A stretch of DNA of 37,771 nt from a virus (IMGVR_UViG_3300050196_000125:1-37771); one strand, 5' to 3'. Positions 786 through 37,771 are shown, counted from the first letter of the stretch. Notes: a model not told the origin generated them from the letters alone. A program made the numbers and translations.

Positions 786-1640
786 TCAATACTCCTGAGC
801 CTCTAGGCGAGTGATGAAGAAATGGATGCCGCTGGCGCATTCCTCTTGCCAGTTTTCATCGAATGAATCAGGGGTGACGCGCTGGCCTGCTCGGTATTCC
901 GTCTTGCCATCGTGCGAAGAAATAGCGACCTCTGCGCCAATCACTTCCAGCACATCCGCATATTCAGCACGGCACTTTCGTCCAAATGCGTGCGAGCGCT
1001 TTGCCGTCTCTGGAATGCGTAATTTGACAATCACGCTGTTCTTGCATTTCTTCCAGCCGATCAGGTCGCCATCAGGAAGAATGCGCGTTTTTGCAATGGC
1101 GATTTCTGCGCCTTTGGCATCCGCAAGGTAGGCATCCGCAAGGTTGGCACCCGCAAGGTTGGCACGCGCAAGGTTGGCACCCGCAAGGTTGGCATCCGCA
1201 AGGTTGGCACCCGCAAGGTTGGCACGCGCAAGGTTGGCACCCGCAAGGTTGGCACCCGCAAGGTAGGCACCCGCAAGGTTGGCACGCGCAAGGTTGGCAC
1301 CCGCAAGGTTGGCATCCGCAAGGTTGGCACCCGCAAGGTTGGCACGCGCAAGGTTGGCACCCGCAAGGTTGGCACCCGCAAGGTAGGCACCCGCAAGGTA
1401 GGCATCCGCAAGGTTGGCACCCGCAAGGTAGGCATCCGCAAGGTAGGCATCCGCAAGGTAGGCATCCGCAAGGTAGGCATCCGCAAGGTTGGCACCCGCA
1501 AGGTAGGCATCCGCAAGGTTGGCACGCGCTTTAACAGCTTGCTCCAGCACGTAGCGCATTGCCATGCCGCTCGATTGCTCTGGAACTTCGCATTCAAAAA
1601 GAACCTCATCGGTAAAACGGTGTTTGATTTGCTGCTTCAT
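786..1640 (-). CDS. Pentapeptide-repeat protein with DUF5758-like C-terminal domain
   Basis: 27 A(G/D/R)A(N/Y)L repeats, then C-terminal IGWKK...RKCRAEYA...ECASGIHFFITRLEA. AAGGAG RBS before the ATG at 1640. Confidence 0.9.
   Translation of the reverse strand: MKQQIKHRFTDEVLFECEVPEQSSGMAMRYVLEQAVKARANLADAYLAGANLADAYLADAYLADAYLADAYLAGANLADAYLAGAYLAGANLAGANLARANLAGANLADANLAGANLARANLAGAYLAGANLAGANLARANLAGANLADANLAGANLARANLAGANLADAYLADAKGAEIAIAKTRILPDGDLIGWKKCKNSVIVKLRIPETAKRSHAFGRKCRAEYADVLEVIGAEVAISSHDGKTEYRAGQRVTPDSFDENWQEECASGIHFFITRLEAQEY
1116..1529 (-). repeat. 15-bp tandem repeat array (27 units + 9 bp)
   Basis: Minus-strand unit GCG-(GGT/GAT/CGT)-GCC-(AAC/TAC)-CTT. Confidence 0.95.
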
Positions 1641-1813
1641 TAGTTGCTCCTTGAAAAACAAAAGGCCCCGATGTGGAGCCTTGTGATTTCCCCCTCGTTA
1701 GAAGGGGAGGGGTTTGTTGAATGAAGGTTTATTTGCTTGCGTTTGACAACTAACAGGATGACTAACCGAAAGACTTATGCTGGGTCGGGAAGGTGGCTAT
1801 CCCTCATTAACCC

Positions 1814-4264: not shown

Positions 4265-4307
4265 TACATCAAATAGTGTTGACAAGGACTACACTATTTG
4301 ATGTAAT
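4265..4307 (+). promoter_or_regulatory. PR promoter with OR operators
   Basis: Perfect 15-bp inverted repeat TACATCAAATAGTGT (4265-4279) / ACACTATTTGATGTA (4291-4305). TTGACA (4279-4284), 17 bp, TGTAAT (4302-4307). Confidence 0.88.
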
Positions 4308-4313
4308 TTGTCC

Positions 4314-12341: not shown

Positions 12342-14434
12342 CCAAAGATGATGTTCTAGAACGGGCTAAAAAGCGGTTTGAGTATTCGCTTGAGCGAAGC
12401 TCGCACAACCGCGACAAAGCCAAGCAGGACATCAAGTTCGCTGCTGCGTCACCTGACGACCCTTGGCAATGGGAAGACACGGCAGTTAAACAGCGTCAGT
12501 TGGAAAAGCGCCCTCGGTTGACCATCAACAAGCTGCCCCAACACATCCGTCAGGTCACGAACGACATCCGGCAGAACCGCCCGTCTATCAAGTTCCGTCC
12601 TGCTGACAATGACGCAGACGTTGAAGTTGCAGAAATTCTGAATGGATTGGCGCGTCACATCGAGGCGAACTCTGATGCTGATGTGGCGTATGACTTTGCG
12701 TCTGACAACCAAGTCACGCACGGCACTGGCTACATCCGAGTGATGGCCGACTATGTGAAAGAGGATTCGTTCGATCAGGACATCTTCATTCGCGCTGTTC
12801 GGGACACATTCAAGTGCTTTGATGACCCAGACGCAGAAGACCCCGCAGGCGCTGACCGTCGCTTCTTTGGCATTGAAGACTACCTGACAGAAGCCGACTT
12901 CAAGGCTCAATACCCAGACGCTGAACCTGTTGACTGGAACAACATCGGCAGTGGTGATTGGTATGACCGTGCGCAGAAATATGTGCGGGTTGCTGAGTAT
13001 TTCGAGACTGAAGACAAAGACGCTACCTTGCTCATGTGGGCCGATGGCTCCACTGCGTTTGAGGGAGACCCGCTGCCCCAGACAGTGCTTGAGGGTGAGC
13101 TGCCAATCAAGAAGCGCAAAGCTAAGAAGCGGATTGTCAAATGGTACAAGCTCTCCGGCGCTGAAGTGCTGGACGAACGCGAGTTCCCATGCTCCATGAT
13201 TCCCGTCGCCCGTGTGTTGGGCAATGAGTGGGTGGTTGATGGCAAGACCTACGTTAGCGGCTTGGTGCGCAACGCTAAAGACTCGCAGCGCATGTACAAC
13301 GTGGCGCAATCTGCCATTGTTGAGCGTGTTATGCAGGCTCCTAAAGCACCTTGGATTACGCCTGCTGAAGCTGTTGAAGGCTATGACAAGAACTGGCAGA
13401 ACGCCAACTCTGGCAACGCTGCTTATTTGCCCTACAACCACGTTGACGCAGAAGGCAACCCCATCCCCGCGCCACAACGTCAGATGCCTGCACCGGTTGA
13501 GCAAGGACTCAGCCAGATTGCAATGTCTGCCTCTGATGACATCAAGAGCGAAACAGGCCAATACGATGCATCGCTAGGTCAAAAGAGTAACGAGACTTCA
13601 GGCCGCGCAATCATGGCGCGTCAACGTGAAGGCGACAACGCAACTTATCACTACGTTGACAACCTTGGCCGTGCCATCCGTCATGTAGGTCGAATCATCC
13701 TTGACATGATTCCCCGCATCTATGACACACAGCGAGTTGCACGCATCTTGGGTGAGGATGGAAGCCCAGCCAACGTCACGCTTGACCCAAACAACCCTGA
13801 ACCATTGACAGAGGTTGAAGACGACAAGGGCGACATTCAGCGCATCTTTAACCCGAATATCGGCTGCTATGACGTTTATACGACTTCTGGCCCGTCTTTC
13901 ACGACTCGCCGCATGGAAGCTGTAGACGCAATGACCGCGATGACACAAGCCAACCCTCAGTTGTGGCAAGTGATCGGGGATTTGCTGGTCAAGAACATGG
14001 ATTGGCCTGGTGCTGATGACATGGCAAAACGTCTAAAGCTCACACTTCTGCCGCCTATCCAGCAAGAGATTCAAGGTGAAGAAAAGGGCGAACAAGTACC
14101 GCCTCAGATTCAGCAGGCTATGGACCAGATGCAGCAACAAATTCAGCAGCTTGGACAAGCACTGGAAAACGCATCGAACCATGCCGAGCAGTTGGAAAAA
14201 GAGCTTGAGAGCAAGACCAACGAGCAGCTAATCAAGGCATACGGCGAAGAAACAAAGCGTATCAATGTGGTCGCTCCCGCGATGTCTCCTGAGGATGTGC
14301 AAGCCCTTGTTATGCAGACGCTACAGCAGGCATTGAGTACGCCTCCACCTGCACAACCGGTCATAGAAGACCTCCAAGAGTACGAACAATCCGAACCGCC
14401 TCAGAGCGGTTTTTTTACGCCTGAAGGAATGTGA
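12338..14434 (+). CDS. Portal protein (P22 gp1-like)
   Basis: About 700 aa; RPRLTINKL, GLVRNAKDSQRMYN, NETSGRAIMARQ and a Q-rich C-terminal barrel. Alternative start at 12329. Confidence 0.92.
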   Translation: MTKDDVLERAKKRFEYSLERSSHNRDKAKQDIKFAAASPDDPWQWEDTAVKQRQLEKRPRLTINKLPQHIRQVTNDIRQNRPSIKFRPADNDADVEVAEILNGLARHIEANSDADVAYDFASDNQVTHGTGYIRVMADYVKEDSFDQDIFIRAVRDTFKCFDDPDAEDPAGADRRFFGIEDYLTEADFKAQYPDAEPVDWNNIGSGDWYDRAQKYVRVAEYFETEDKDATLLMWADGSTAFEGDPLPQTVLEGELPIKKRKAKKRIVKWYKLSGAEVLDEREFPCSMIPVARVLGNEWVVDGKTYVSGLVRNAKDSQRMYNVAQSAIVERVMQAPKAPWITPAEAVEGYDKNWQNANSGNAAYLPYNHVDAEGNPIPAPQRQMPAPVEQGLSQIAMSASDDIKSETGQYDASLGQKSNETSGRAIMARQREGDNATYHYVDNLGRAIRHVGRIILDMIPRIYDTQRVARILGEDGSPANVTLDPNNPEPLTEVEDDKGDIQRIFNPNIGCYDVYTTSGPSFTTRRMEAVDAMTAMTQANPQLWQVIGDLLVKNMDWPGADDMAKRLKLTLLPPIQQEIQGEEKGEQVPPQIQQAMDQMQQQIQQLGQALENASNHAEQLEKELESKTNEQLIKAYGEETKRINVVAPAMSPEDVQALVMQTLQQALSTPPPAQPVIEDLQEYEQSEPPQSGFFTPEGM
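14394..14416 (+). terminator. Terminator-like hairpin in the portal 3' end
   Basis: AACCGC-ctcaga-GCGGTT followed by TTTTT. Confidence 0.6.
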
Positions 14435-14436
14435 CC

Positions 14437-15921
14437 ATGATGGTTCAATATTGGGGAACAGCAAATTACAACGAATTCCCGCTAACGGGTGTTTTGCGTC
14501 TGTGGACAACCGGACAGTTGCAAGATGTGCCTGATGCTATAGCTGCTCGATTGGTTGCCGCTGGCGTTGGCTTTCAATACGACTCCAGCAGCTTGAAGGG
14601 CGAGCCTGCAATTGTGGTTAGTGATCCCCTCACCGGAGTGATTCGGTTGAATGATGGCTCCCTGAATCCGCAATCAATGCAGCGCGTTGGCTATCGCGGA
14701 CAATCGCTTTTCACGTTTTCAGATACGGCAAACTGGACGTTTATCTTTGGCGGTTCCGGTGGCTCCATAGTCTCGGACACCACAAACAAGAAAGCCAGCA
14801 CCAACGGGCTTGCAGTAAACACCGGATCGTCCTCTTCGGATGGCGTGAAAAAGTCTTTTGGCGCAGCTACTTTTGCCATTCAATCGGGTTCAATTATTCG
14901 CTTGATGCTGTATGTGCCCTATTCGGCGTTGACTGGCACAAATACCCTGAGCATTAAGTTTTCGTCAGACAACAACGCCACAAAGGGCTTGGCGTTTACG
15001 TTCGGCAATGCTTACTTCCAAAACGCAGGCTGGCAAGTCCTGACGGCGAAGGCGGGTGAAGATGGCACGCAAGAATTCCAGAGCGGCGCTACTTGGACTG
15101 CAACAGGTGGCGAAGCGTGGGGAGCCAACTTTAATTACTGCCACATCGTTCTAAACAACTTTAACGGCTCCACCATCACACTCGATTCGTTGCTCGTTGG
15201 GGCAAAGGATGTGCCTCGGGTGGTGTTCAGCTTTGATGGCGTGGCTCCATCTGTATCCAACGCAGTTGCGCGCTCCCTTGCCGCACATGGCTGGGCTGCT
15301 GGCATTTTCACTGATGGCGACACTGTGAGCATTGCAAATGACAAGGCCGGTGCGCTGTCCCTTGTGAATGATTACGGATGGTCATGGGGAACGCAGGGTA
15401 TCGCCCACACAAACTACACATCCAACGGGCGCGACATTGGGGCTGACTTTGATACCGCTGCTGCAAACATGATTGCTGTGGGGGCTGCGCGTCCCACTAC
15501 CTTTGCTTACCCTGTCAACCAGTCAAACAAGGTGCTTGATGCAACGCTTGCTGGCCGTGGGGTGGTATGGCGTCGCTCATACGGGGAGGACATCATCAAT
15601 ACTGTGGGTTACGGCATCCCCAATAGCGATGACGGAATGGTGCGCTCTGGCTTTACTCAGCACCTTGCAGCCAACTACAACCTGGGCACGGCCTATCAGC
15701 AAGTCAAGAACCGTATTGACCGTGTGTGCGCTGTGGGCGGTGTGCTTTCGCTGTTTACGCACAAAGAAACGGCACTCTCTACAGATTGGTCATTGGGTGG
15801 CGACTTAACTCAGTGGTACATGCTGGTGGAGTATCTGTGGCAGATGCGGAATCAGTACGGACTTGAAGTGGTTACGCCAGAGCAAGTAAAGCCGCTGCTG
15901 ACCGCACAGCGATTCGTTTAA
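14437..15921 (+). CDS. Polysaccharide deacetylase (NodB/CE4)-like domain protein with N-terminal beta-rich region
   Basis: VVFSFDG, GTQGIAHTNY, TFAYP and LFTH motifs in the C-terminal half. Confidence 0.7.
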   Translation: MMVQYWGTANYNEFPLTGVLRLWTTGQLQDVPDAIAARLVAAGVGFQYDSSSLKGEPAIVVSDPLTGVIRLNDGSLNPQSMQRVGYRGQSLFTFSDTANWTFIFGGSGGSIVSDTTNKKASTNGLAVNTGSSSSDGVKKSFGAATFAIQSGSIIRLMLYVPYSALTGTNTLSIKFSSDNNATKGLAFTFGNAYFQNAGWQVLTAKAGEDGTQEFQSGATWTATGGEAWGANFNYCHIVLNNFNGSTITLDSLLVGAKDVPRVVFSFDGVAPSVSNAVARSLAAHGWAAGIFTDGDTVSIANDKAGALSLVNDYGWSWGTQGIAHTNYTSNGRDIGADFDTAAANMIAVGAARPTTFAYPVNQSNKVLDATLAGRGVVWRRSYGEDIINTVGYGIPNSDDGMVRSGFTQHLAANYNLGTAYQQVKNRIDRVCAVGGVLSLFTHKETALSTDWSLGGDLTQWYMLVEYLWQMRNQYGLEVVTPEQVKPLLTAQRFV

Positions 15922-16842: not shown

Positions 16843-16939
16843 ATGCCAAACAGCATTCTTACCCCCACAGCGGTTACCCGCAAAGCCCTCGCAATCCTGC
16901 ACCAGAAGTTGAACTTCGTGGGTTCTATCAACCGTCAGT
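16843..16939 (+). CDS. Major capsid protein exon 1 (P22 coat family)
   Basis: TAAGGA RBS; MPNSILTPTAVTRKALAILHQKLNFVGSINRQ plus the T of a split Tyr codon. Confidence 0.92.
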
Positions 16940-17692
16940 AAACATACCGTCTAGCTGACATTAAACCCCGTTAATTGCTGGAAACCCCTTAAGCATCACT
17001 GACCACAACGTAGCTGGAAACGGCAAGCGTGAAGGTTTGAAAACAGTGGTGATTGGGCAATCAGCAGCCAAGCGTCTTACCAGTTAATTGTGGTATGATG
17101 AAGGTTCAACGACTAGCCGTAAGGCGTACCCTCAAGCGAGGGGAAATGCGGGGCCAAATATGTACACAAAACGTCCAACGAAAGAGCGATTTTTAGAGAA
17201 GGTTGTAGAGCAGCCTTCTGGTTGTCATGAATGGAGTGGTTGCCTTATGCCAAATGGCTACGGGCAATTTCATTTAAACGGCAAGACAGCGTATGCACAT
17301 CGTGTTGCATATGAGTTAGCAAATGGGCCTTTTCCTAAAGAGGCATTTGTTATGCACTCATGTGACAACAGAAAGTGCGTCAACCCAGCCCATCTATCCC
17401 TAGGGACATTTGATGCAAATATGGCTGATATGGTTGAGAAAAGTCGTCAGGCGCACGGAGCAAAAAATGGCCGTGCAAAACTTACACCTGACCAAGTTCG
17501 CGCTATTCGCTTAGAAGTTGGAACGCACAAAGAGATTGGAGAGCGCTACGGCGTTGGACAGCCTCTTGTAACCATGATTCGCAGTGGTCGAATCTGGAAA
17601 CATATTTGAGAAGATATAGTCTGTTCTAGCAGGAAACTGTTAGCTGCCGAAAGGCGGGTAAGTTTGTCGCGCAACTTACTGAACATTAAAAG
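16940..17692 (+). ncRNA. Group I intron (IA-like, with P7.1/P7.2), 753 nt
   Basis: The 5' exon ends in U paired with IGS GCTGAC (16954-16959). P AATTGCTGGAAA (16973), Q AATCAGCAGCC (17059), R GTTCAACGACTA (17104), S AAGATATAGTCT (17611); terminal G at 17692. Confidence 0.95.
17160..17609 (+). CDS. Intron-encoded HNH homing endonuclease with C-terminal HTH
   Basis: AHRVAYE...VMHSCDNRKCVNPAHL...N, then AKLTPDQVRAIR...WKHI; sits in the P8 loop. Confidence 0.92.
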   Translation: MYTKRPTKERFLEKVVEQPSGCHEWSGCLMPNGYGQFHLNGKTAYAHRVAYELANGPFPKEAFVMHSCDNRKCVNPAHLSLGTFDANMADMVEKSRQAHGAKNGRAKLTPDQVRAIRLEVGTHKEIGERYGVGQPLVTMIRSGRIWKHI

Positions 17693-18783: not shown

Positions 18784-18851
18784 GTAGGCGATACGATGTA
18801 AACCCTGATGTGGTAAGATGTGGCAACGCATCTGCCACATCGGAGGTTTAT

Positions 18852-19646
18852 ATGAATGAGTTTTTGGATCACACGGTTTGCTGCATCAAGGGGTGCGACT
18901 TGCCAACATTGGCATTAGGTCTTTGCAATAAGCACTGGCGCAGAACAAAGGCGTATGGCTCTCCCGCAGTCACTCAGCGACATAGCGGGATGTTTATTGG
19001 AAAGAGTCCTGAAGTCAGATTCAAGATGCAATACAAGGTTGCTGAATCTGGATGCTGGGAATGGATAAGCGGAAAAGATGCCGACGGATACGGATTGTTT
19101 TCTGGATTGGTGAACGGCACGCCATACAAGAGGGCGCATCGTTGGTCATGGGCATTTCACAACAATGAAGTGATCCCAAAATGGGGGAATATCTGCCACA
19201 AGTGCGACAATCCCTCATGCGTCAATCCAGAGCATCTATGGCTTGGAACTGCACATGAAAACCAAGCGGATAAATGGAACAAAGGCCGCGCAAATATGCC
19301 ATTCGGCGAGCGCATTCCGGGCGCTAAGTTGAAAGAGGATCAGGTTAGAGCAATCCTTGCAGACCCTAGGCCAGCGTCAAGAATTTCTGCTGATTACGGA
19401 ATTTCAGCAGGAACCGTAAACGACATAAAGCGGCGCAAGTCATGGGCGCACCTTGATGTTGAGAATGTTGTTAGACCCAAGCGTGAAAGCCCTATGAAGG
19501 GACGTAGCGACAAGCTAAACGAAGATGCTGTTAGAGACATTCGCACAAGCACTTTGTCTGGATTGGAACTAGCTGCAAAGTATGAAATCTCACCGCAGCA
19601 GGTTTGTGGGATACGAAAACGCAGAGCGTGGAAACACGTTGAATAA
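18852..19646 (+). CDS. Free-standing HNH endonuclease (N-terminal Zn finger, two C-terminal HTH repeats)
   Basis: CCIKGC..LCNKH; AHRWSW...CHKCDNPSCVNPEHL; two KL..x.VR.I...YxIS...W.H repeats; GGAGG RBS. Confidence 0.9.
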   Translation: MNEFLDHTVCCIKGCDLPTLALGLCNKHWRRTKAYGSPAVTQRHSGMFIGKSPEVRFKMQYKVAESGCWEWISGKDADGYGLFSGLVNGTPYKRAHRWSWAFHNNEVIPKWGNICHKCDNPSCVNPEHLWLGTAHENQADKWNKGRANMPFGERIPGAKLKEDQVRAILADPRPASRISADYGISAGTVNDIKRRKSWAHLDVENVVRPKRESPMKGRSDKLNEDAVRDIRTSTLSGLELAAKYEISPQQVCGIRKRRAWKHVE

Positions 19647-26489: not shown

Positions 26490-26520
26490 AGCCCCAACGT
26501 GAAAACTGCGGGGCTTTTTT
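26490..26520 (+). terminator. Terminator-like hairpin
   Basis: AGCCCC...GGGGCT followed by TTTTT. Confidence 0.6.
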
Positions 26521-26538
26521 CATGGAGCCAATCAATGG

Positions 26539-27036
26539 CTAAATAGTGCAACCTTGATGCAGGGTTCTTTTTGCTGCTAGGTATGCTTCATGAGCCAACT
26601 CTGGAGTGTCAAACCGGCCTAAATTCCATGTTTTCTTGTTGACCGAAATTACCGCCCTATACCTACCAGCATTAAGACTGACACCTAGAAAACCACATTT
26701 ATTGTTTTTCATTGGGCTGCGCTTGTTTTGCATGTTGACTGCATGATTAGCCTCCCTGAGATTAGAAATCCTGTTGTCGCTTGGCTCTCCATTTATGTGG
26801 TCTATTAGTTTTGGCCAATATCCATAAACATAGAACCATGCCAAGCGATGCGACAAATAAACACGGTTGTCTACTTTTAGCCGAAGGTGTCCGTCCGACA
26901 AAGGTGCACCTTGAAGTGGGCCAAGCGCTACATTCTTAGATGCAGCGATTCTGGTGAAAACGCCAGTTTCCGAATCGTAATGAATTAGCTGCTTGAGCCT
27001 TTCAACGGTCAAGCCTTTAAAATCCTTGTCAGCCAT
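26539..27036 (-). CDS. HNH-AP2 homing endonuclease
   Basis: HRLAWFYVYG...IDHINGEPSDNRISNLRE, then AP2-like GFLGVS...YRAVI...LGRFDTPELAHEAY. Confidence 0.92.
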   Translation of the reverse strand: MADKDFKGLTVERLKQLIHYDSETGVFTRIAASKNVALGPLQGAPLSDGHLRLKVDNRVYLSHRLAWFYVYGYWPKLIDHINGEPSDNRISNLREANHAVNMQNKRSPMKNNKCGFLGVSLNAGRYRAVISVNKKTWNLGRFDTPELAHEAYLAAKRTLHQGCTI

Positions 27037-27039
27037 GAT

Positions 27040-27108
27040 GACTCCTTAACAGTCTGATTGGTTAGAAGCCTCGTCGTGTGTCCAGCACTTCGGGGCTTCG
27101 CTATTTTA
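27040..27108 (-). repeat. 69-bp leader repeat, copy 1 (upstream of HNH-AP2)
   Basis: Identical to 32233-32301. Confidence 0.95.
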
Positions 27109-27117
27109 ACTTTTAGT

Positions 27118-27141
27118 AGCCCTCCAAGCGAGGGCTTTTTT
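27118..27141 (+). terminator. Terminator-like hairpin before the tail fibre gene
   Basis: AGCCCTC-caagc-GAGGGCT followed by TTTTT. Confidence 0.7.
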
Positions 27142-27161
27142 GTGCCTGAAAGGATATACAA

Positions 27162-28715
27162 ATGGCATTCTTTTTGAGTCCCATCTGCAACGACCAGCAG
27201 ACTGACGCTAACGGCAATCCTCTTGTCGGCGGCAAGGTCTACACCTATCTGGCAGGCTCCAGCACTCCCGCTGCGACCTACACAGACAGCACGGGCGCAA
27301 CTCCGCAGGCAAACCCCATCATCCTGAACAGCTTGGGGCTTCCTGCTTCGCCCATCTGGTTAACCGGTGGCGTATCGTACAAGTTCGTCATCAAGACGGC
27401 CGCAGACGTCACCGTGCGTACTGTTGACAACGTTACTGGTGTGAATGACGTTTCCAGCACTGCGCAAGAGTGGAATGAAACCGGATTCGTCCCGACCTAT
27501 CTGAGCGCTACACAGTTCTCAGTTCCAGGCGACCAGACCGCAACCTTGCAAGTGAACCGCAGGCTGCGCAACAAGGTTACATCTGGTTATGCCTATGGGC
27601 GCGCGAGCGTGTCCACCTTCTCTGCCGGTGTCACCACTGTAACGATGGTGAACGATGGCACTCCGCTTGATTCCGGCTTGTCAAGCGTAGCAACTAGCTT
27701 TCTTAGTGCCTCTCCGACATCGATTCCTTACGGTGCCTATCAGACTGTTGGCGATGCCTCGCAAGTGCTGTCAAAGATTCAGCCCATCTTGGCAACCGTC
27801 AACGGCTCAGGTGGTGCGCCTGCTAATGGCGTGCGCGTCACGTTGAATCCTACTTGGCTGGATTTCCGCAGCACAACAGCAAATTCAGGCGCTGTTTCAA
27901 CGATTCAGGTTCCCTCTGCGTTGACCTTGGATGTTCCATCGGGCGCAACGCTAGGGACTATCAGCGCTGTAGCGTCAAAGATTGCAATTCTTGCCATCAA
28001 CAACGGCGGCACAGTGGAATTAGCTGTTGTCAATACCGCTTCTGTGCTTCTGGATGAATCTGGAACCATCAACACAACGGCAATTAGCGGCGCGGCTTCA
28101 GGGTTGACAACCGTTTATTCCGCTGCGGCTCGTTCGTCTGTTGCATACATGATTGTGGGTTACTTCATTAGCACACAAGCAACGGCGGGGACTTGGGTAA
28201 CTGTCCCGACATTGGTTCAAGGTGTGCGCGGTTATACGCCTATTACTCAGGCGGCAACCCTTGGAACAGCCGTTACCACATCCGGCGCTAACTCCTACGA
28301 CATCACCGGCATCGCAAGTTATGCGAAACGCATCACCGTGACGTTCAACCAAGTGAGCGACACGACCCCCAGCAACATGCTGATTCAGCTTGGCTCTGGC
28401 TCCGTTCAGACAACCGGCTACGCAGCTACCGGCATTTTTGCTGGAACTTCAGCCTCTGGGGCGACAAGTACCGCAGGCTTCCCTGTTGTTGTATCCCAGA
28501 ACGGCACTTCCCTAATTTCGGGGCAAGTGGTGTTCACACACATGGGCGGCAACACTTGGTCATGTTTCGGAGTCTTGGCGCGTACCAATGAAAACCTGAT
28601 GCAGTTTTGCGCGGGTGTTGTGACTCTTTCCGGTGCGCTTGATCGCTTGCGCTTGACCACAGCCAGCGGCACATCTGCCTTTGATGGTGGTTCGATAAAC
28701 ACGCTGGTGGAGTAG
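27162..28715 (+). CDS. Tail fibre/tailspike with P22-like head-binding N-terminal domain
   Basis: DANGNPLVGGKVYTYLAGSSTP..TYTD...NPIILNSLG...YKFVIK; Thr/Ser/Gly-rich body. Confidence 0.85.
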   Translation: MAFFLSPICNDQQTDANGNPLVGGKVYTYLAGSSTPAATYTDSTGATPQANPIILNSLGLPASPIWLTGGVSYKFVIKTAADVTVRTVDNVTGVNDVSSTAQEWNETGFVPTYLSATQFSVPGDQTATLQVNRRLRNKVTSGYAYGRASVSTFSAGVTTVTMVNDGTPLDSGLSSVATSFLSASPTSIPYGAYQTVGDASQVLSKIQPILATVNGSGGAPANGVRVTLNPTWLDFRSTTANSGAVSTIQVPSALTLDVPSGATLGTISAVASKIAILAINNGGTVELAVVNTASVLLDESGTINTTAISGAASGLTTVYSAAARSSVAYMIVGYFISTQATAGTWVTVPTLVQGVRGYTPITQAATLGTAVTTSGANSYDITGIASYAKRITVTFNQVSDTTPSNMLIQLGSGSVQTTGYAATGIFAGTSASGATSTAGFPVVVSQNGTSLISGQVVFTHMGGNTWSCFGVLARTNENLMQFCAGVVTLSGALDRLRLTTASGTSAFDGGSINTLVE

Positions 28716-28717
28716 CC

Positions 28718-28951
28718 ATGAACTACCAAGACCTCATCAACATAGCGGCAGGAACGGTACTAACGGTTATGGGCTGGTTTGCTCGCCAACTCTGGGACGC
28801 TGTGAAGGGCTTACAAGCTGACCTCTCAGCATTGCGGGAAGAAATCGCTAAGGACTACACCCGACGCGATGACTTCAAGGAACTGGCAACAGAGATTCGC
28901 CAGATGTTCCGCGAGATCAGCGACAAGCTAGACAAGAAGGCCGACAAATGA
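28718..28951 (+). CDS. Holin-like/hemolysin-like membrane protein
   Basis: One N-terminal TM segment plus a coiled coil ending KLDKKADK; start of the lysis cluster. Confidence 0.6.
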   Translation: MNYQDLINIAAGTVLTVMGWFARQLWDAVKGLQADLSALREEIAKDYTRRDDFKELATEIRQMFREISDKLDKKADK

Positions 28952-29415
28952 TTACCGCACTCCTATCCTTCCTCGGCGGCAATGTGTTCCGGATGATCTT
29001 CGGGGAGGTCATTAGCTATCTGAACAAGAAGCAAGACCACGCGCAAGAACTTGACCGCATGAAGCTGCAAAACGCGCTAGATGCTGCCCAGCATGAGCGC
29101 AACCTCAAAGCCATCACGGTGCAGGCTGAACTAGGCGTAAAGACCATTCAGGTGCAGGCAGAGGCGGCTATAGGTGAGATTGAGGCGCAAGGCTGGCTAG
29201 AGGCTGTAAAGTCCACATCCACCAAGACCGGCATTGTCTGGGTTGATGCTTGGAACGCAGTTATCCGGCCTGCTGTTGCTACATGGTCTGTAGCAATGAT
29301 GACCTTGGCTGAGATTGGCGCAGTCGCTCAGTTGTCAGAGCAGACATGGGCCATCTGTGGCGCTGCTCTGGGTATCTACCTAGCAGATCGCGCACTGTTT
29401 AAGCGGGGTAAGTGA
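28948..29415 (+). CDS. Lysis-cluster membrane protein (putative holin)
   Basis: Hydrophobic N-terminus, VIRPAVATW and C-terminal TM segments; coupled to the lysozyme gene. Confidence 0.6.
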   Translation: MITALLSFLGGNVFRMIFGEVISYLNKKQDHAQELDRMKLQNALDAAQHERNLKAITVQAELGVKTIQVQAEAAIGEIEAQGWLEAVKSTSTKTGIVWVDAWNAVIRPAVATWSVAMMTLAEIGAVAQLSEQTWAICGAALGIYLADRALFKRGK

Positions 29416-29858
29416 TGACAGACGCTGTGCAAGTTGCCGCAGCGTTAGCCCGAAGGTTTGAGGGTCTGTACCTGACCCCATACCTGTGCCCAGCGGGTGT
29501 GCCAACTATTGGCTATGGGGCGACCTACTACGAAGACGGTACGCCCGTAACCATTCGTGATGCAGCTATCACCAGAACACGCGCAGACGCTTTGCTTCTG
29601 TGGATGGTGCGCAAGGTCTATCTGCCCGCAGTAGTGGTGCTGTGTCCATACATCACCGACCCAAACCGCCTGGCCGCAATTATTGATTTTGCTTTCAACC
29701 TTGGCAGCAAGAGGCTCAAAACCTCCACGCTCCGGCGCAAGGTCAATGCAGGCGATTGGGAAGCCGTGCCCGCAGAGCTGCGCAAGTGGACTAAGGGCGG
29801 TGGTGTGGTTCTTCGTGGCTTGGTGCTTCGTCGTGAAGCTGAGATTGCCCTCATTTAG
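29415..29858 (+). CDS. Endolysin (GH24 lysozyme)
   Basis: FEGLYLTPYLCPAGVPTIGYG, FAFNLG, STLRRKVNAGDW, LRGLVLRR. Confidence 0.93.
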   Translation: MTDAVQVAAALARRFEGLYLTPYLCPAGVPTIGYGATYYEDGTPVTIRDAAITRTRADALLLWMVRKVYLPAVVVLCPYITDPNRLAAIIDFAFNLGSKRLKTSTLRRKVNAGDWEAVPAELRKWTKGGGVVLRGLVLRREAEIALI

Positions 29859-29866
29859 GAGGTTCT

Positions 29867-30043
29867 ATGCGTATCTTTTTGATGACCATGCTTCTCTCGT
29901 TCTCGGCTACAGCCCAGACACCCCCCGTAGAAGTCGGTGCCATGTGCGACAAGCACGGCAACATTCTGATAGCAGTCGCAGCGCATCAGGCGGGTCTCTA
30001 CAAGTTCACGCTACCCGTCAACTTCTGCGGTGTAGGCGTATGA
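29867..30043 (+). CDS. 58-aa secreted protein (absent from the ORF track)
   Basis: AGGAGG RBS; MRIFLMTMLLSFSATA signal peptide; two Cys residues. Confidence 0.6.
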   Translation: MRIFLMTMLLSFSATAQTPPVEVGAMCDKHGNILIAVAAHQAGLYKFTLPVNFCGVGV

Positions 30044-30399
30044 AGACAACCCCCGAGCATGTAGAGGAATTTGCCCTCTACATCGCAGAGTTTCAGAACC
30101 TGCTCAACCTCAGAGACTGGCGCATAGAGCCAAGCGGGAAGCCTGCCAGCAAGGGCGCAATGGCTGAAGTTGGCATATCTCTGGATGACCGTCTCGCTGT
30201 TTGGAGCCTTGGGAAAGATTGGGGAAACATGCCAATCAACTCCAAGACGCTGCGAGAGACCGCACTGCATGAAGTTCTCCACATCTTCATGAAACCTCTC
30301 ATCGATTCAGCCATGCAGCGCGATGAATCAGCTATTGCAACGCTCGAGCATTCCGCGATTGTGGTGCTGGAGAAGTTGCTTTCACAGGTGAACACATGA
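30040..30399 (+). CDS. HEXXH metallopeptidase-like protein
   Basis: MKTTPEH start coupled by ATGA; TALHEVLHIF. Confidence 0.7.
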   Translation: MKTTPEHVEEFALYIAEFQNLLNLRDWRIEPSGKPASKGAMAEVGISLDDRLAVWSLGKDWGNMPINSKTLRETALHEVLHIFMKPLIDSAMQRDESAIATLEHSAIVVLEKLLSQVNT

Positions 30400-31550
30400 A
30401 TTACAAAGACTTGACGCAATACGCCACACAGCGCGAGCTTGATTACATCGAAGCCCTAGACAAGCACGGCAGCACCCGCAAGGCTGCAAAGGCGCTAGGC
30501 GTGGCTCGTAGCGGCTTCTGTGAAGCTCTGGCACGGCTCAAGAAACGTGCAGCACTCAAAGGCTACAGCCCTGAACACGACATGGTGCATACGGTGCCGG
30601 ATGGCTTCAAGGTCAAGGGCGTGTCCACCTACTACAACGCAGAGGGAAAACCGTCAGGCCAGTGGGTGAAGTCTTCGGCTGACGCTGAGAGACAAGCGGA
30701 GTTGATGCGGGAAATGATCGATGCCATGTGCAGAGACGTTCCCAAATTGGGCACGGTCATACCCCCAGAGGGTACGAGTTCCAAGCTGTTGAACGTGATT
30801 CCTATGGGTGACCCGCACCACGGTTTGTACGCATGGGCGGCGGAATCTGGCGACGATTTTGATAGCGAGATTGCACGAAAGTTGACTCTTGGCGCGGTTG
30901 ATCGCCTCATGGCGGCGGCCCCCAATGCTGAAACGTGCGTCATTCTTCCTCTGGGTGACGTTTTCCACGCCAACGACCAAAGCAACGTAACGCCAGGACA
31001 CAAGCACCAGCTTGACGTTGATTCGCGCTTCGTGAAGGTGCTAGGAATTGGCATTGAGACATACCGCTACGCAGTCATCAAGGCGCTGGAAAAGCATCAG
31101 AAGGTGATTGTTCGGTTTGTCTCTGGCAACCATGACCCGCAGGCAGTGTGGGCGCTTGCCTTCACCATTCAGGCGTATTTCTCAGATAACCCTCGGGTAA
31201 CGGTTGACCTATCCCCCTCTAAATTCTGGTTTCACGAATTTGGAAAGGTGCTGATTGGCGCAACCCACGGCGACACGGTGAAGCATGAAGCGCTCTTAGG
31301 CGTGATGGCTTGCGACAAGGCCGAAGCATGGGGGCGCACCAAACACCGGTATTGGTACACCGGACACGTTCACCACAAGAGCGTTAAAGAGTTCCCCGGC
31401 GTTGTGTGCGAGTCATTCCGCACCCTAGCGGCAAAAGACGCTTACGCAGCAGGACACGGCTACAGGGCAGGGCGCGATATGCAGTGCATCACGCACCACA
31501 TCGAGCATGGAGAGATTGAGCGTCATCGCTGCGATGTTGGGATGCTTTAG
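30396..31550 (+). CDS. Calcineurin-like metallophosphoesterase with N-terminal HTH
   Basis: GDPHHG, LGDVFH, GNHD, THGD and GHVHH motifs; HGSTRKAAKALGV HTH. Confidence 0.88.
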   Translation: MNYKDLTQYATQRELDYIEALDKHGSTRKAAKALGVARSGFCEALARLKKRAALKGYSPEHDMVHTVPDGFKVKGVSTYYNAEGKPSGQWVKSSADAERQAELMREMIDAMCRDVPKLGTVIPPEGTSSKLLNVIPMGDPHHGLYAWAAESGDDFDSEIARKLTLGAVDRLMAAAPNAETCVILPLGDVFHANDQSNVTPGHKHQLDVDSRFVKVLGIGIETYRYAVIKALEKHQKVIVRFVSGNHDPQAVWALAFTIQAYFSDNPRVTVDLSPSKFWFHEFGKVLIGATHGDTVKHEALLGVMACDKAEAWGRTKHRYWYTGHVHHKSVKEFPGVVCESFRTLAAKDAYAAGHGYRAGRDMQCITHHIEHGEIERHRCDVGML

Positions 31551-32229
31551 CGTGTCTTGCCTTTGCAGCCGCTGAGAGCTTTGCTCTCCACTCAGGGGTA
31601 ATAACTCGCCCCTTCAATGCTGCGCTGACTTTCGCCCTCATCTCTGGGGTTTTATTCTTGAGCGCAGTAGCTGCGCCTACTATGGCGCGGTGCTCGGCTG
31701 ATATTTGCTTCCCCTTGTGAACCTTGCTGATTGCAAGCCTATGCTCGGCTGAAGGGGAAACGCGCTTACTGCTCAGACTCATTTTGAGTTTTGTTTCTTC
31801 GCTGTGCTTTCTGCCCTTGAAAGAAACGCAGTACTCCAGCCGCTTTTCGTATGGGATGGCTTTTTGCCCTTTTGACATCTTTGCTCTGGCTTCGTCAGAG
31901 TGCTTGTAACCCGCAGCCGACCCGCCAACGACCAAGGTGTTATAGCCATCAATTCCATTCGCGCTGTTGAAGAATGAAACGTAGTGCGTTTCGCGCTCAA
32001 AAATCTTGCTTTTGTCCGCAACGATTTCCAAAATGGAAAACTCAAACGCGTCGGCTCCGTATTTGTTCCAAGCCCTTTGCAAGGCTGCCGAATGGTGGGT
32101 GTTTTTACGCAGCGATGATCTGTGGCCGCTCCATCGAGCTTTGATGTTCACGGATGAACCGATATACACCTTGCCGTTGACAAGGTTCTTTATCTGGTAG
32201 ATGCCAGATGCGATAATGGCATGAGCCAT
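31489..32229 (-). CDS. GIY-YIG homing endonuclease with NUMOD3-like repeats
   Basis: SGIYQIKNLVNGKVYIGSSVNIKARW..H; HSDEARAKMS, HSEETKLKMS and SAEHR repeats. Confidence 0.93.
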   Translation of the reverse strand: MAHAIIASGIYQIKNLVNGKVYIGSSVNIKARWSGHRSSLRKNTHHSAALQRAWNKYGADAFEFSILEIVADKSKIFERETHYVSFFNSANGIDGYNTLVVGGSAAGYKHSDEARAKMSKGQKAIPYEKRLEYCVSFKGRKHSEETKLKMSLSSKRVSPSAEHRLAISKVHKGKQISAEHRAIVGAATALKNKTPEMRAKVSAALKGRVITPEWRAKLSAAAKARHAKASQHRSDDAQSLHARCGA

Positions 32230-32232
32230 GGC

Positions 32233-32301
32233 GACTCCTTAACAGTCTGATTGGTTAGAAGCCTCGTCGTGTGTCCAGCACTTCGGGGCTTCGCTATTTT
32301 A
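32233..32301 (-). repeat. 69-bp leader repeat, copy 2 (upstream of GIY-YIG)
   Basis: Identical to 27040-27108. Confidence 0.95.
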
Positions 32302-32320
32302 CATCTTTGACGCCAAAACA

Positions 32321-32367
32321 GCTATTCACAAAGCTATTCATTACTCTATTCACGAATAGCGAATGGC
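32321..32367. repeat. Candidate integrase arm-type / Xis binding sites
   Basis: CTATTCA three times at 12-bp spacing (32322, 32334, 32346), then inverted GAATAGC and GAATGGC. Confidence 0.5.
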
Positions 32368-32532: not shown

Positions 32533-32589
32533 TGGTGCCCAGGGCCGGACTCGAACCGGCACGCCTTGCGGCGGGGGATTTTGAGTCCC
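32533..32589 (-). other. attP core: 3' half of tRNA-Leu(CAA)
   Basis: Minus strand GGGA-CTCAAAA-TCCCC, long variable arm, GCCGG-TTCGAGT-CCGGC, CCTGGGCACCA. No 5' half; adjacent to the integrase 3' end. Confidence 0.9.
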
Positions 32590-37375: not shown

Positions 37376-37671
37376 GCTGTCTCCTTCGTGGGGACTGGTG
37401 CCCATTGCAATGTCTCGTCCTCTCCGTCGTTGTCTCGGATTGGGCGCAGATCAGCATCCAAGCAAGACCAAAAACATCCGCTTTCTGGGTTTCTTGTGCT
37501 TCCTTTGTATTCAACAATCCACCTCGCTCCGATTGGCGCTCGCCCTCCAGATGCAAGGTATGCGCCGTGTACGCCTGCAAAGGAAGTAACTCTGACAAGC
37601 GCTCCTGCACCAATAAAAGCGCCATCTGTGGCGTGGACTTTTATTGCTAAATCACCTTGCTTGCAGTTCAT
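37372..37671 (-). CDS. Hypothetical phage protein
   Basis: MNCKQGDLAI...DADLRPIRDNDGEDETLQWAPVP. Confidence 0.7.
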   Translation of the reverse strand: MNCKQGDLAIKVHATDGAFIGAGALVRVTSFAGVHGAYLASGGRAPIGARWIVEYKGSTRNPESGCFWSCLDADLRPIRDNDGEDETLQWAPVPTKETA

Positions 37672-37771
37672 GACCATCCCCCAAGCAGCACCGGCAGATA
37701 GCCAGACATCAGCAAGAACACACAGCCAAAAGCAGCCACAGTGCCGACCAGATCACGCACACGCCAATGGC
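37635..37771. repeat. Terminal direct repeat / circular assembly overlap, copy 2
   Basis: Matches 1-137. The leftward ORF series continues across the junction. Confidence 0.95.

Follow-up and report, generated by a model that had tools for sequence, protein, structure and literature searches.

A predicted SymR/Sar-type antisense RNA at the starts of two unrelated homing endonuclease genes of a P22-like temperate phage

Small antisense RNAs that cover the start of the gene they control form a mechanism class that is itself decades old. In Escherichia coli, SymR (RF01809), the antitoxin of symE, overlaps the start codon and the ribosome-binding site (RBS) of its target and blocks translation, as stated in an excerpt of PMC4147584, and in phage P22 the Sar RNA (RF00262), antisense to ant, blocks ant translation (excerpt of PMC13397905). 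A portion of PMC5006887 describes RNA-OUT of IS10 as a 69-nt cis-antisense RNA that blocks ribosome binding on the transposase mRNA, more strongly with more copies. Meanwhile, for the T4-type homing endonucleases I-TevI, segB and mobE, part of a T4 review (PMC2988022) reports RBS hairpins that restrain translation; the same part names promoter timing and sense-strand hairpins as means of control and gives the control of most free-standing genes as untested. Little is known of how free-standing homing endonucleases in temperate phages are kept from harming the lysogen, and an RNA of the SymR/Sar type would be a simple, testable answer. The present analysis concerns a 78-nt repeat that lies at the starts of two nuclease genes in IMGVR_UViG_3300050196_000125, a stretch of 37,771 nt (the window) whose record is a whole 37.8-kb virus. 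This is a P22-like temperate phage, encoding terminase, P22 portal and coat proteins, lysozyme, integrase and an ERF protein.

Both nuclease genes are on the minus strand, antisense to the late genes: a free-standing HNH_3-AP2 endonuclease gene (26539..27036, 165 aa) and a free-standing GIY-YIG-NUMOD3 endonuclease gene (31489..32229, 246 aa), each assigned by domain matches. As the original prediction held, their proteins are unrelated, with no BLASTP similarity (best E 0.82). A nuclease domain and a DNA-binding domain are present in both according to Pfam and PHROG matches, the HNH motif residues of the HNH-AP2 gene are conserved in alignment, and by domain and catalytic motif both genes classify as free-standing homing endonucleases. 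Sequence comparison within the window confirmed that 27040-27108 and 32233-32301 are identical over 69 nt without a mismatch (chance expectation of such an exact pair ~3e-32) and that the likeness extends over 27031-27108 and 32224-32301, through ATGGCT, where 76 of 78 positions agree and the mismatches are at 27038-27039 / 32231-32232. The copies are 5,193 bases apart, and each holds the Shine-Dalgarno (SD) sequence AAGGAG of its gene on the minus strand (27042..27047 for the HNH gene; 32235-32240 in copy 2).

Mis-assembly of one copy, which had been named as a result that would overturn the repeat, was not borne out by unitigs from four of 24 sequencing runs, one flagged as a possible source (X3) and three not flagged (X6, X8 and X12), which break as expected of a two-copy repeat. 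Unitigs stop at 27069 and 32262 (X3, X6 and X8), 30 nt into the 69-nt core, and restart at 27079 (X3, X6 and X8) and at 32272 (X3, among the rows listed), with similar depth. Because they run from each open reading frame (ORF) 30 nt into the core, both ORFs are joined to the repeat, and the breaks are the signature of a true two-copy repeat, in which contigs cannot phase the upstream flank with the ORF.

Judging from these sequences and their relatives, each repeat is probably a gene for a SymR/Sar-type cis-antisense RNA of ~78 nt that would block nuclease translation. The predicted RNAs are on the plus strand, at 27031..27108 (fold, match to a covariance model and the same 5' register as SymR) and at 32224..32301 (sequence, fold and the same model). 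The 5' hairpin (27031..27063; 32224-32256 in copy 2), predicted from fold and covariation, has an AGCCA/UGGUU outer stem and an inner stem across the anti-RBS, spanning start codon and RBS. It is followed by a terminator-like 3' hairpin (27065-27099) with a U-rich tail, together 27065..27108 and, in copy 2, 32258-32301, a feature based on the fold and on relatives. The predicted RNA start is the first base of the repeat, which is why the identity runs through ATGGCT and then stops. The sequence holds an opposite-strand span over RBS and start codon with a -10 in the first codons, and a two-hairpin, antisense-favoured fold that ends in a hairpin and a U-tract.

Compared with SymR, the predicted RNA is of nearly the same length (78 versus 77 nt) and likewise begins over codon 2, with AGCCAU in place of AGUCAU; SymR has a -10-like hexamer inside the ORF, 7 nt before AG(U/C)CAU, the same spacing as copy 1, and both RNAs form two hairpins with a GUG-loop-CAC core. 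Their targets differ, being SymE in one case and homing-type nucleases in the other, and the locus does not classify as a SymE/SymR type I toxin-antitoxin system. Regarding P22, the GAAGCCC...GGGCTTC outer stem of sar is the same as in the cassette, the distance from hairpin to ATG is 64 nt in sar and 63 nt here, and the annotated sar promoter, inside the first codons of ant, and the terminator at the hairpin delimit the same interval. The position of P22 immI also corresponds to that of copy 1, which lies between an injection-protein-like gene and a tail gene. However, the Sar start lies immediately ahead of the ATG, the AGCCA/UGGUU stem is missing from it, and P22 ant follows arc and is co-oriented with the late genes whereas the nucleases are antisense to them. 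With nucleases as targets in place of an antirepressor downstream of arc, the locus is not an immI region of the P22 type.

These likenesses were recovered in both directions. A covariance model of 38 seeds, with neither SymR nor sar among them (R1, with rough E-values), matches both known RNAs: E. coli SymR, with the match beginning at the annotated first base (27 bits, E 4e-6), and the P22 sar interval (21 bits, E 0.003). Conversely, among 20 loci of relatives scanned, Rfam symR matched six with 39-43 bits (threshold 61 bits) and Rfam sar matched seven with 24-36 bits (threshold 43 bits), on the antisense strand and over the same span. At the gathering threshold, Rfam found only a group I intron in the whole window and neither repeat copy, in line with the expectation that no described family would match. 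The undescribed kind of system that had been proposed is nevertheless not what the cassette represents, since both its position and its structure line up with those of SymR and sar. This suggests that Rfam sar and symR are narrow samples of one wide family, which would head toxic or entry-timed genes (Icd-like, antirepressor, integrase, ArdA/ArdC-like, methylase and nuclease), and a known type of control has likely, as read from sequence, been reused on selfish nuclease genes. In a literature search of limited coverage, no title or abstract described such cassettes on homing endonucleases; supplementary motif lists could hold the RNA.

Other described RNAs are less close. The best Rfam match of the copies is the antisense RNA of plasmid R1162 (RF00043; 23.9 and 21.5 bits, E 0.03 and 0.13), which shares hairpin-CUAACCA...AAGGAG...AUGGCU with both, but this match lies on the mRNA strand and far under the 55-bit threshold. 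RNA-OUT/RNA-IN of IS10, as described in that portion of PMC5006887, may be likened to the cassette in that the DNA-cutting enzyme of a selfish element is controlled; the likeness is one of description, with no Rfam match seen, and only the first 35 nt of RNA-OUT pair. BLASTn of the repeat against phages gave no full-length match; the best (E 0.3) lies in Salmonella phage Oslo, where an arc-like gene and ant flank it. Weak matches to Xanthomonas plasmids were also seen.

Relatives were collected with loose patterns, which gave many chance matches. The viral set began with 119 candidates having hairpin, SD and ORF, 76 of them distinct, and 69 were kept, P22 and both window copies included, after seven were dropped by eye (L123, L135, L137, L159, L170, L192 and L204). 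For the genome set, 94 pattern matches gave 85 distinct sequences, 66 of which were kept with SD and ORF; the 19 set aside seem to include several true cassettes.

The original prediction had read the hairpin on the minus strand, as a fold of the mRNA. The hairpin exists there, as does the small 4-bp stem over the AAGGAG RBS, but a C-A mismatch on the minus strand becomes a U-G pair on the plus strand, where the fold consists of two hairpins antisense to the ORFs; stability, G-U pairs and covariation place the conserved fold on this opposite strand. The window copies have fold z-scores of -4.0 and -1.9 on the plus strand and -0.7 and -1.1 on the minus (mRNA) strand. The antisense-strand hairpin is the more stable one in 67/69 viral-set and 61/66 genome cassettes, G-U pairs number 124/980 on the antisense strand versus 17/850 on the sense strand, and the 8 nt 3' of the hairpin hold 4.6 T on the antisense versus 1.5 on the sense strand. 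Against shuffled sequences, the family has a median z of -5.4 on the antisense strand; the YUNR loop motif was uninformative (55 sense, 64 antisense, n=116).

For covariation, both copies and 36 relatives, picked for a start like ATGGCT/ATGACT, were aligned with MAFFT. The covariation score was 0.304, compared to 0.121 for shuffled and <=0.09 for slid controls, which supports an RNA fold as the earlier work had anticipated; such scores can be inflated by the relatedness of the sequences, according to the tool's own warning. In this alignment, helix 2 has two-sided changes in all five pairs, and the outer 5' stem changes from C-G to U-A in 6/38 sequences (ATGGCT/ACCA to ATGACT/ATCA), altering codon 2. 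The inner GUG/CAC stem is poorly aligned (62% paired).

The antisense promoters are predicted inside the nuclease ORFs. Copy 1 would use a -10 hexamer, TAAAAT (27018..27023, plus strand), in HNH codons 5-7 and 7 nt before the predicted start, assigned by sequence, SymR spacing and conserved position; copy 2 would use an extended -10, TG-c-GATAAT (32209..32217, plus strand), in GIY-YIG codons 5-7 and 6 nt before the start, assigned by sequence and position. Among relatives, an antisense TAnnnT lies within the first 8 codons of 68/69 viral-set cassettes, versus 4-14 of 65-69 in control windows placed deeper in those ORFs, and of 64/66 genome cassettes, versus 1-12 in such windows; the antisense -10 was not part of the patterns used to collect the relatives.

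In the proposed mechanism, the antisense RNA would be transcribed from this promoter in the first nuclease codons and terminate at the 3' hairpin; by pairing with the start codon, RBS and leader of the nuclease mRNA, it would repress translation. By analogy with the systems above, the likely purpose would be to keep a DNA-damaging selfish gene quiet once the RNA builds up, so that expression after DNA entry would be a brief burst at most. In silico, each of the four RNA-mRNA pairs has a cross-duplex energy between -154 and -163 kcal/mol. Since the copies are near-identical, either RNA would pair with both mRNAs and the two nucleases would come under shared control; the phage is a natural test of cross-regulation because two unrelated nucleases share one RNA sequence.

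Several observations weigh against such an antisense RNA. The sense strand of the family also folds better than shuffles, with a median z of -3.1, and the strand bias of the 3' hairpin, taken alone, fits a plus-strand terminator of late transcripts as well. Copy 2 is the sole cassette of the 69 without a strict TAnnnT (it has GATAAT instead), copy 1 lacks both a TG extension and a clear -35, conservation of the antisense -35 across cassettes is poor (a match of >=4/6 in 37/132), and a simple sigma-70 consensus scan listed neither predicted antisense promoter. In addition, the window copies have no sar or symR match at E<=10, all cassette counts are inflated by related sequences, and in IS10, as given in part of PMC5006887, antisense control is weak in single copy.

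It seems unlikely that the repeat is simply a sense-strand leader, in which a fold of the mRNA itself covers the RBS, as in T4 I-TevI and Aeh1 mobE, and no separate RNA matters. The stem over AAGGAG, the sense folds that surpass shuffles across the family and the RBS-sequestering hairpins documented for homing endonucleases in that part of PMC2988022 would suit such a leader; however, G-U pairs and stability favour the opposite strand, the sense folds of the window copies are not significant, and such a leader would give no reason for an antisense -10 to recur at one position in unrelated ORFs. The T4-type hairpins described there are, moreover, sense-strand and relieved by late promoters, unlike the conserved antisense fold found here. 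A terminator of late plus-strand transcripts, insulating the antisense nuclease gene while the rest of the leader hitch-hikes, is very improbable: both sites do have a hairpin with a U-tract on the strand of the late operon, and copy 2 is at the end of the late genes, but the 5' hairpin covaries, the in-ORF -10 is conserved, relatives lie both with and against neighbouring genes, and copy 1 is followed by a separate terminator at 27118-27136. Hardly credible is an RNA bound by the nucleases as guide or scaffold in the style of HEARO or omega-RNA, since the structured RNA adjoins HNH and GIY-YIG genes but the same fold mostly heads non-nuclease genes, is identical for two unrelated nuclease folds, and stands next to proteins that have their own DNA-binding domains (AP2 and NUMOD3).

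A module acting at the DNA level, with nuclease ORFs swapped at the start codon or the 5.2-kb tail-lysis block deleted or exchanged between the copies, also has little probability. The near-perfect direct repeat with its sharp border at the start codon would agree with it, as would a second phage (G026) in which two cassettes with 73/81 identical positions precede different nucleases. Yet the 5' border coincides with the predicted RNA start, the strand-specific G-U pairs point to RNA, and two full cassettes occurred in only 2/50 records searched (73/81 and 62/79 identical), leaving the idea that identical copies are common unsupported. Each ORF must supply its own antisense promoter, which limits the ORFs that can enter, so free swapping of arbitrary ORFs, as originally envisaged, is unlikely; a GIY-YIG relative with 40% protein identity (L240) comes with a cassette of its own already. 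Nothing seen supports loss or exchange of the block, an event that contigs would not reveal, and losing the block would take away tail and lysis genes.

With the cassette read as an antisense RNA gene, the identity of the copies most likely reflects recent recombination or gene conversion between already homologous cassettes, and the phage encodes an annealing protein of the ERF family. The HNH-AP2 type would be the donor: wherever a near-identical hairpin occurred in metagenome loci (four of four), the ORF after it was HNH-AP2-like, as judged by eye and with one BLASTP; the ORFs that follow the four best leader matches are likewise of the HNH-AP2 type, and cassette-bearing GIY-YIG relatives carry other leaders. 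As a separate observation, one Xenorhabdus contig has near-identical cassettes 5 kb apart (L410 and L435), each before an Icd-like ORF.

Regarding the genes that follow the cassette, ORFs of the genome set were searched with NCBIfam (all 66), Pfam (29) and PHROGs (3), giving 28 Icd-like proteins, 8 nucleases, 3 methylases, 3 ArdC-N, 2 integrases, 1 ArdA, 1 DUF7447 and 20 unassigned. Among 55 viral cassettes, not selected on TAAAAT and with 5 near-duplicates unscanned, 13 precede nucleases and 19 antirepressor-type domains. Cassettes adjoin many unrelated genes in both orientations, and R1 matched the ORF start of 3/80 GIY-YIG relatives and of 0/2 and 9/80 HNH-AP2 relatives, which also rules out a cassette general to these nuclease families as far as R1 detects it. 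By these counts in both directions, the cassette is not restricted to nucleases, and among these nucleases it is not general. The portable, structured regulatory element that had been proposed therefore holds in being common to unrelated nuclease families, and fails as to strand, nuclease specificity and undescribed kind. Looser versions are visible by eye before further HNH-AP2 relatives; seven of these relatives (L473, L479, L483, L484, L513, L516 and L550) have other hairpin stems, missed by R1, while retaining the in-ORF antisense hexamer and the antisense-favoured fold. The cassette family is probably wider than R1 detects.

In the nuclease branch, a candidate sense -10, TAAAAT, overlaps the antisense U-tract without a good -35 (27103..27108, minus strand; 32296-32301 in copy 2). 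A sense TAnAAT just upstream of the hairpin is found in 16/21 nuclease-linked cassettes versus 0/97 others, a count that leaves out three truncated, unassigned ORFs, all with the hexamer; with Pfam calls only, it is 13/17 versus 6/104. No -35 consensus was found for this promoter, and the TG extension is present in 5/33 only. The TATAAT and TAGAAT variants appear to fit a -10 better than a U-tract, and from sequence patterns of this kind a self-contained pair of facing promoters is likely in the nuclease branch. A broader picture, offered tentatively and with considerable doubt, is that antisense modules of ~75 nt, with SymR, Sar and these cassettes among them, form a single large superfamily that is still uncatalogued. 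Its nuclease branch, with face-to-face promoters, would be a self-contained expression unit with which at least four homing endonuclease families could insert anywhere, be expressed briefly when the DNA enters and then silence themselves; variable loops would set specificity, identical cassettes would put unrelated nucleases under one RNA, and a resident prophage would silence an incoming matching nuclease.

Around the HNH gene, both flanks (26490-26545 and 27118-27167, plus strand) carry a terminator, a T-tract, an RBS-like stretch and ATGGC; the left stretch overlaps the HNH stop codon and may be an old tail-gene start that marks the HNH insertion. A similar terminator and RBS adjoin the cassette of L467. 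The GIY-YIG ORF overlaps ORF 30396-31550 (phrog_704), a homologue of which, by eye, lies between two cassette-bearing HNH-AP2-like genes in L471 (1353-3974, G040), and the phrog_704 gene is possibly an insertion hot spot. A third free-standing HNH gene (18810-19646, plus strand) has no R1 match in front of it.

Between the GIY-YIG cassette and the integrase, a 3' part of a tRNA (32534-32589; Leu-CAA by eye) coincides with loose unitig ends and high depth in all four runs, and is likely the attP core; beside it, several short GCTATTCAC-like repeats (32320-32362) are possibly integrase arm or excisionase sites. The group I intron noted above (RF00028, 70.5 bits; 16914-17643, plus strand) contains an HNH ORF (17088-17609), and the ORF after it aligns with the P22 coat protein profile from position 68 on, the intron probably interrupting the coat gene. 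A 496-aa ORF (14431-15921, plus strand) between the portal and scaffold genes weakly matches polysaccharide deacetylase. Two palindromic 45-mers, A+T-rich and related to each other (2308-2352 and 4265-4309), are possibly operators or promoters, and a pentapeptide-repeat protein with DUF5758 (786-1661, minus strand) gives a 15-nt periodic array. Finally, a 137-nt terminal direct repeat (1-137 and 37635-37771, 99% identical) suggests a circular assembly.

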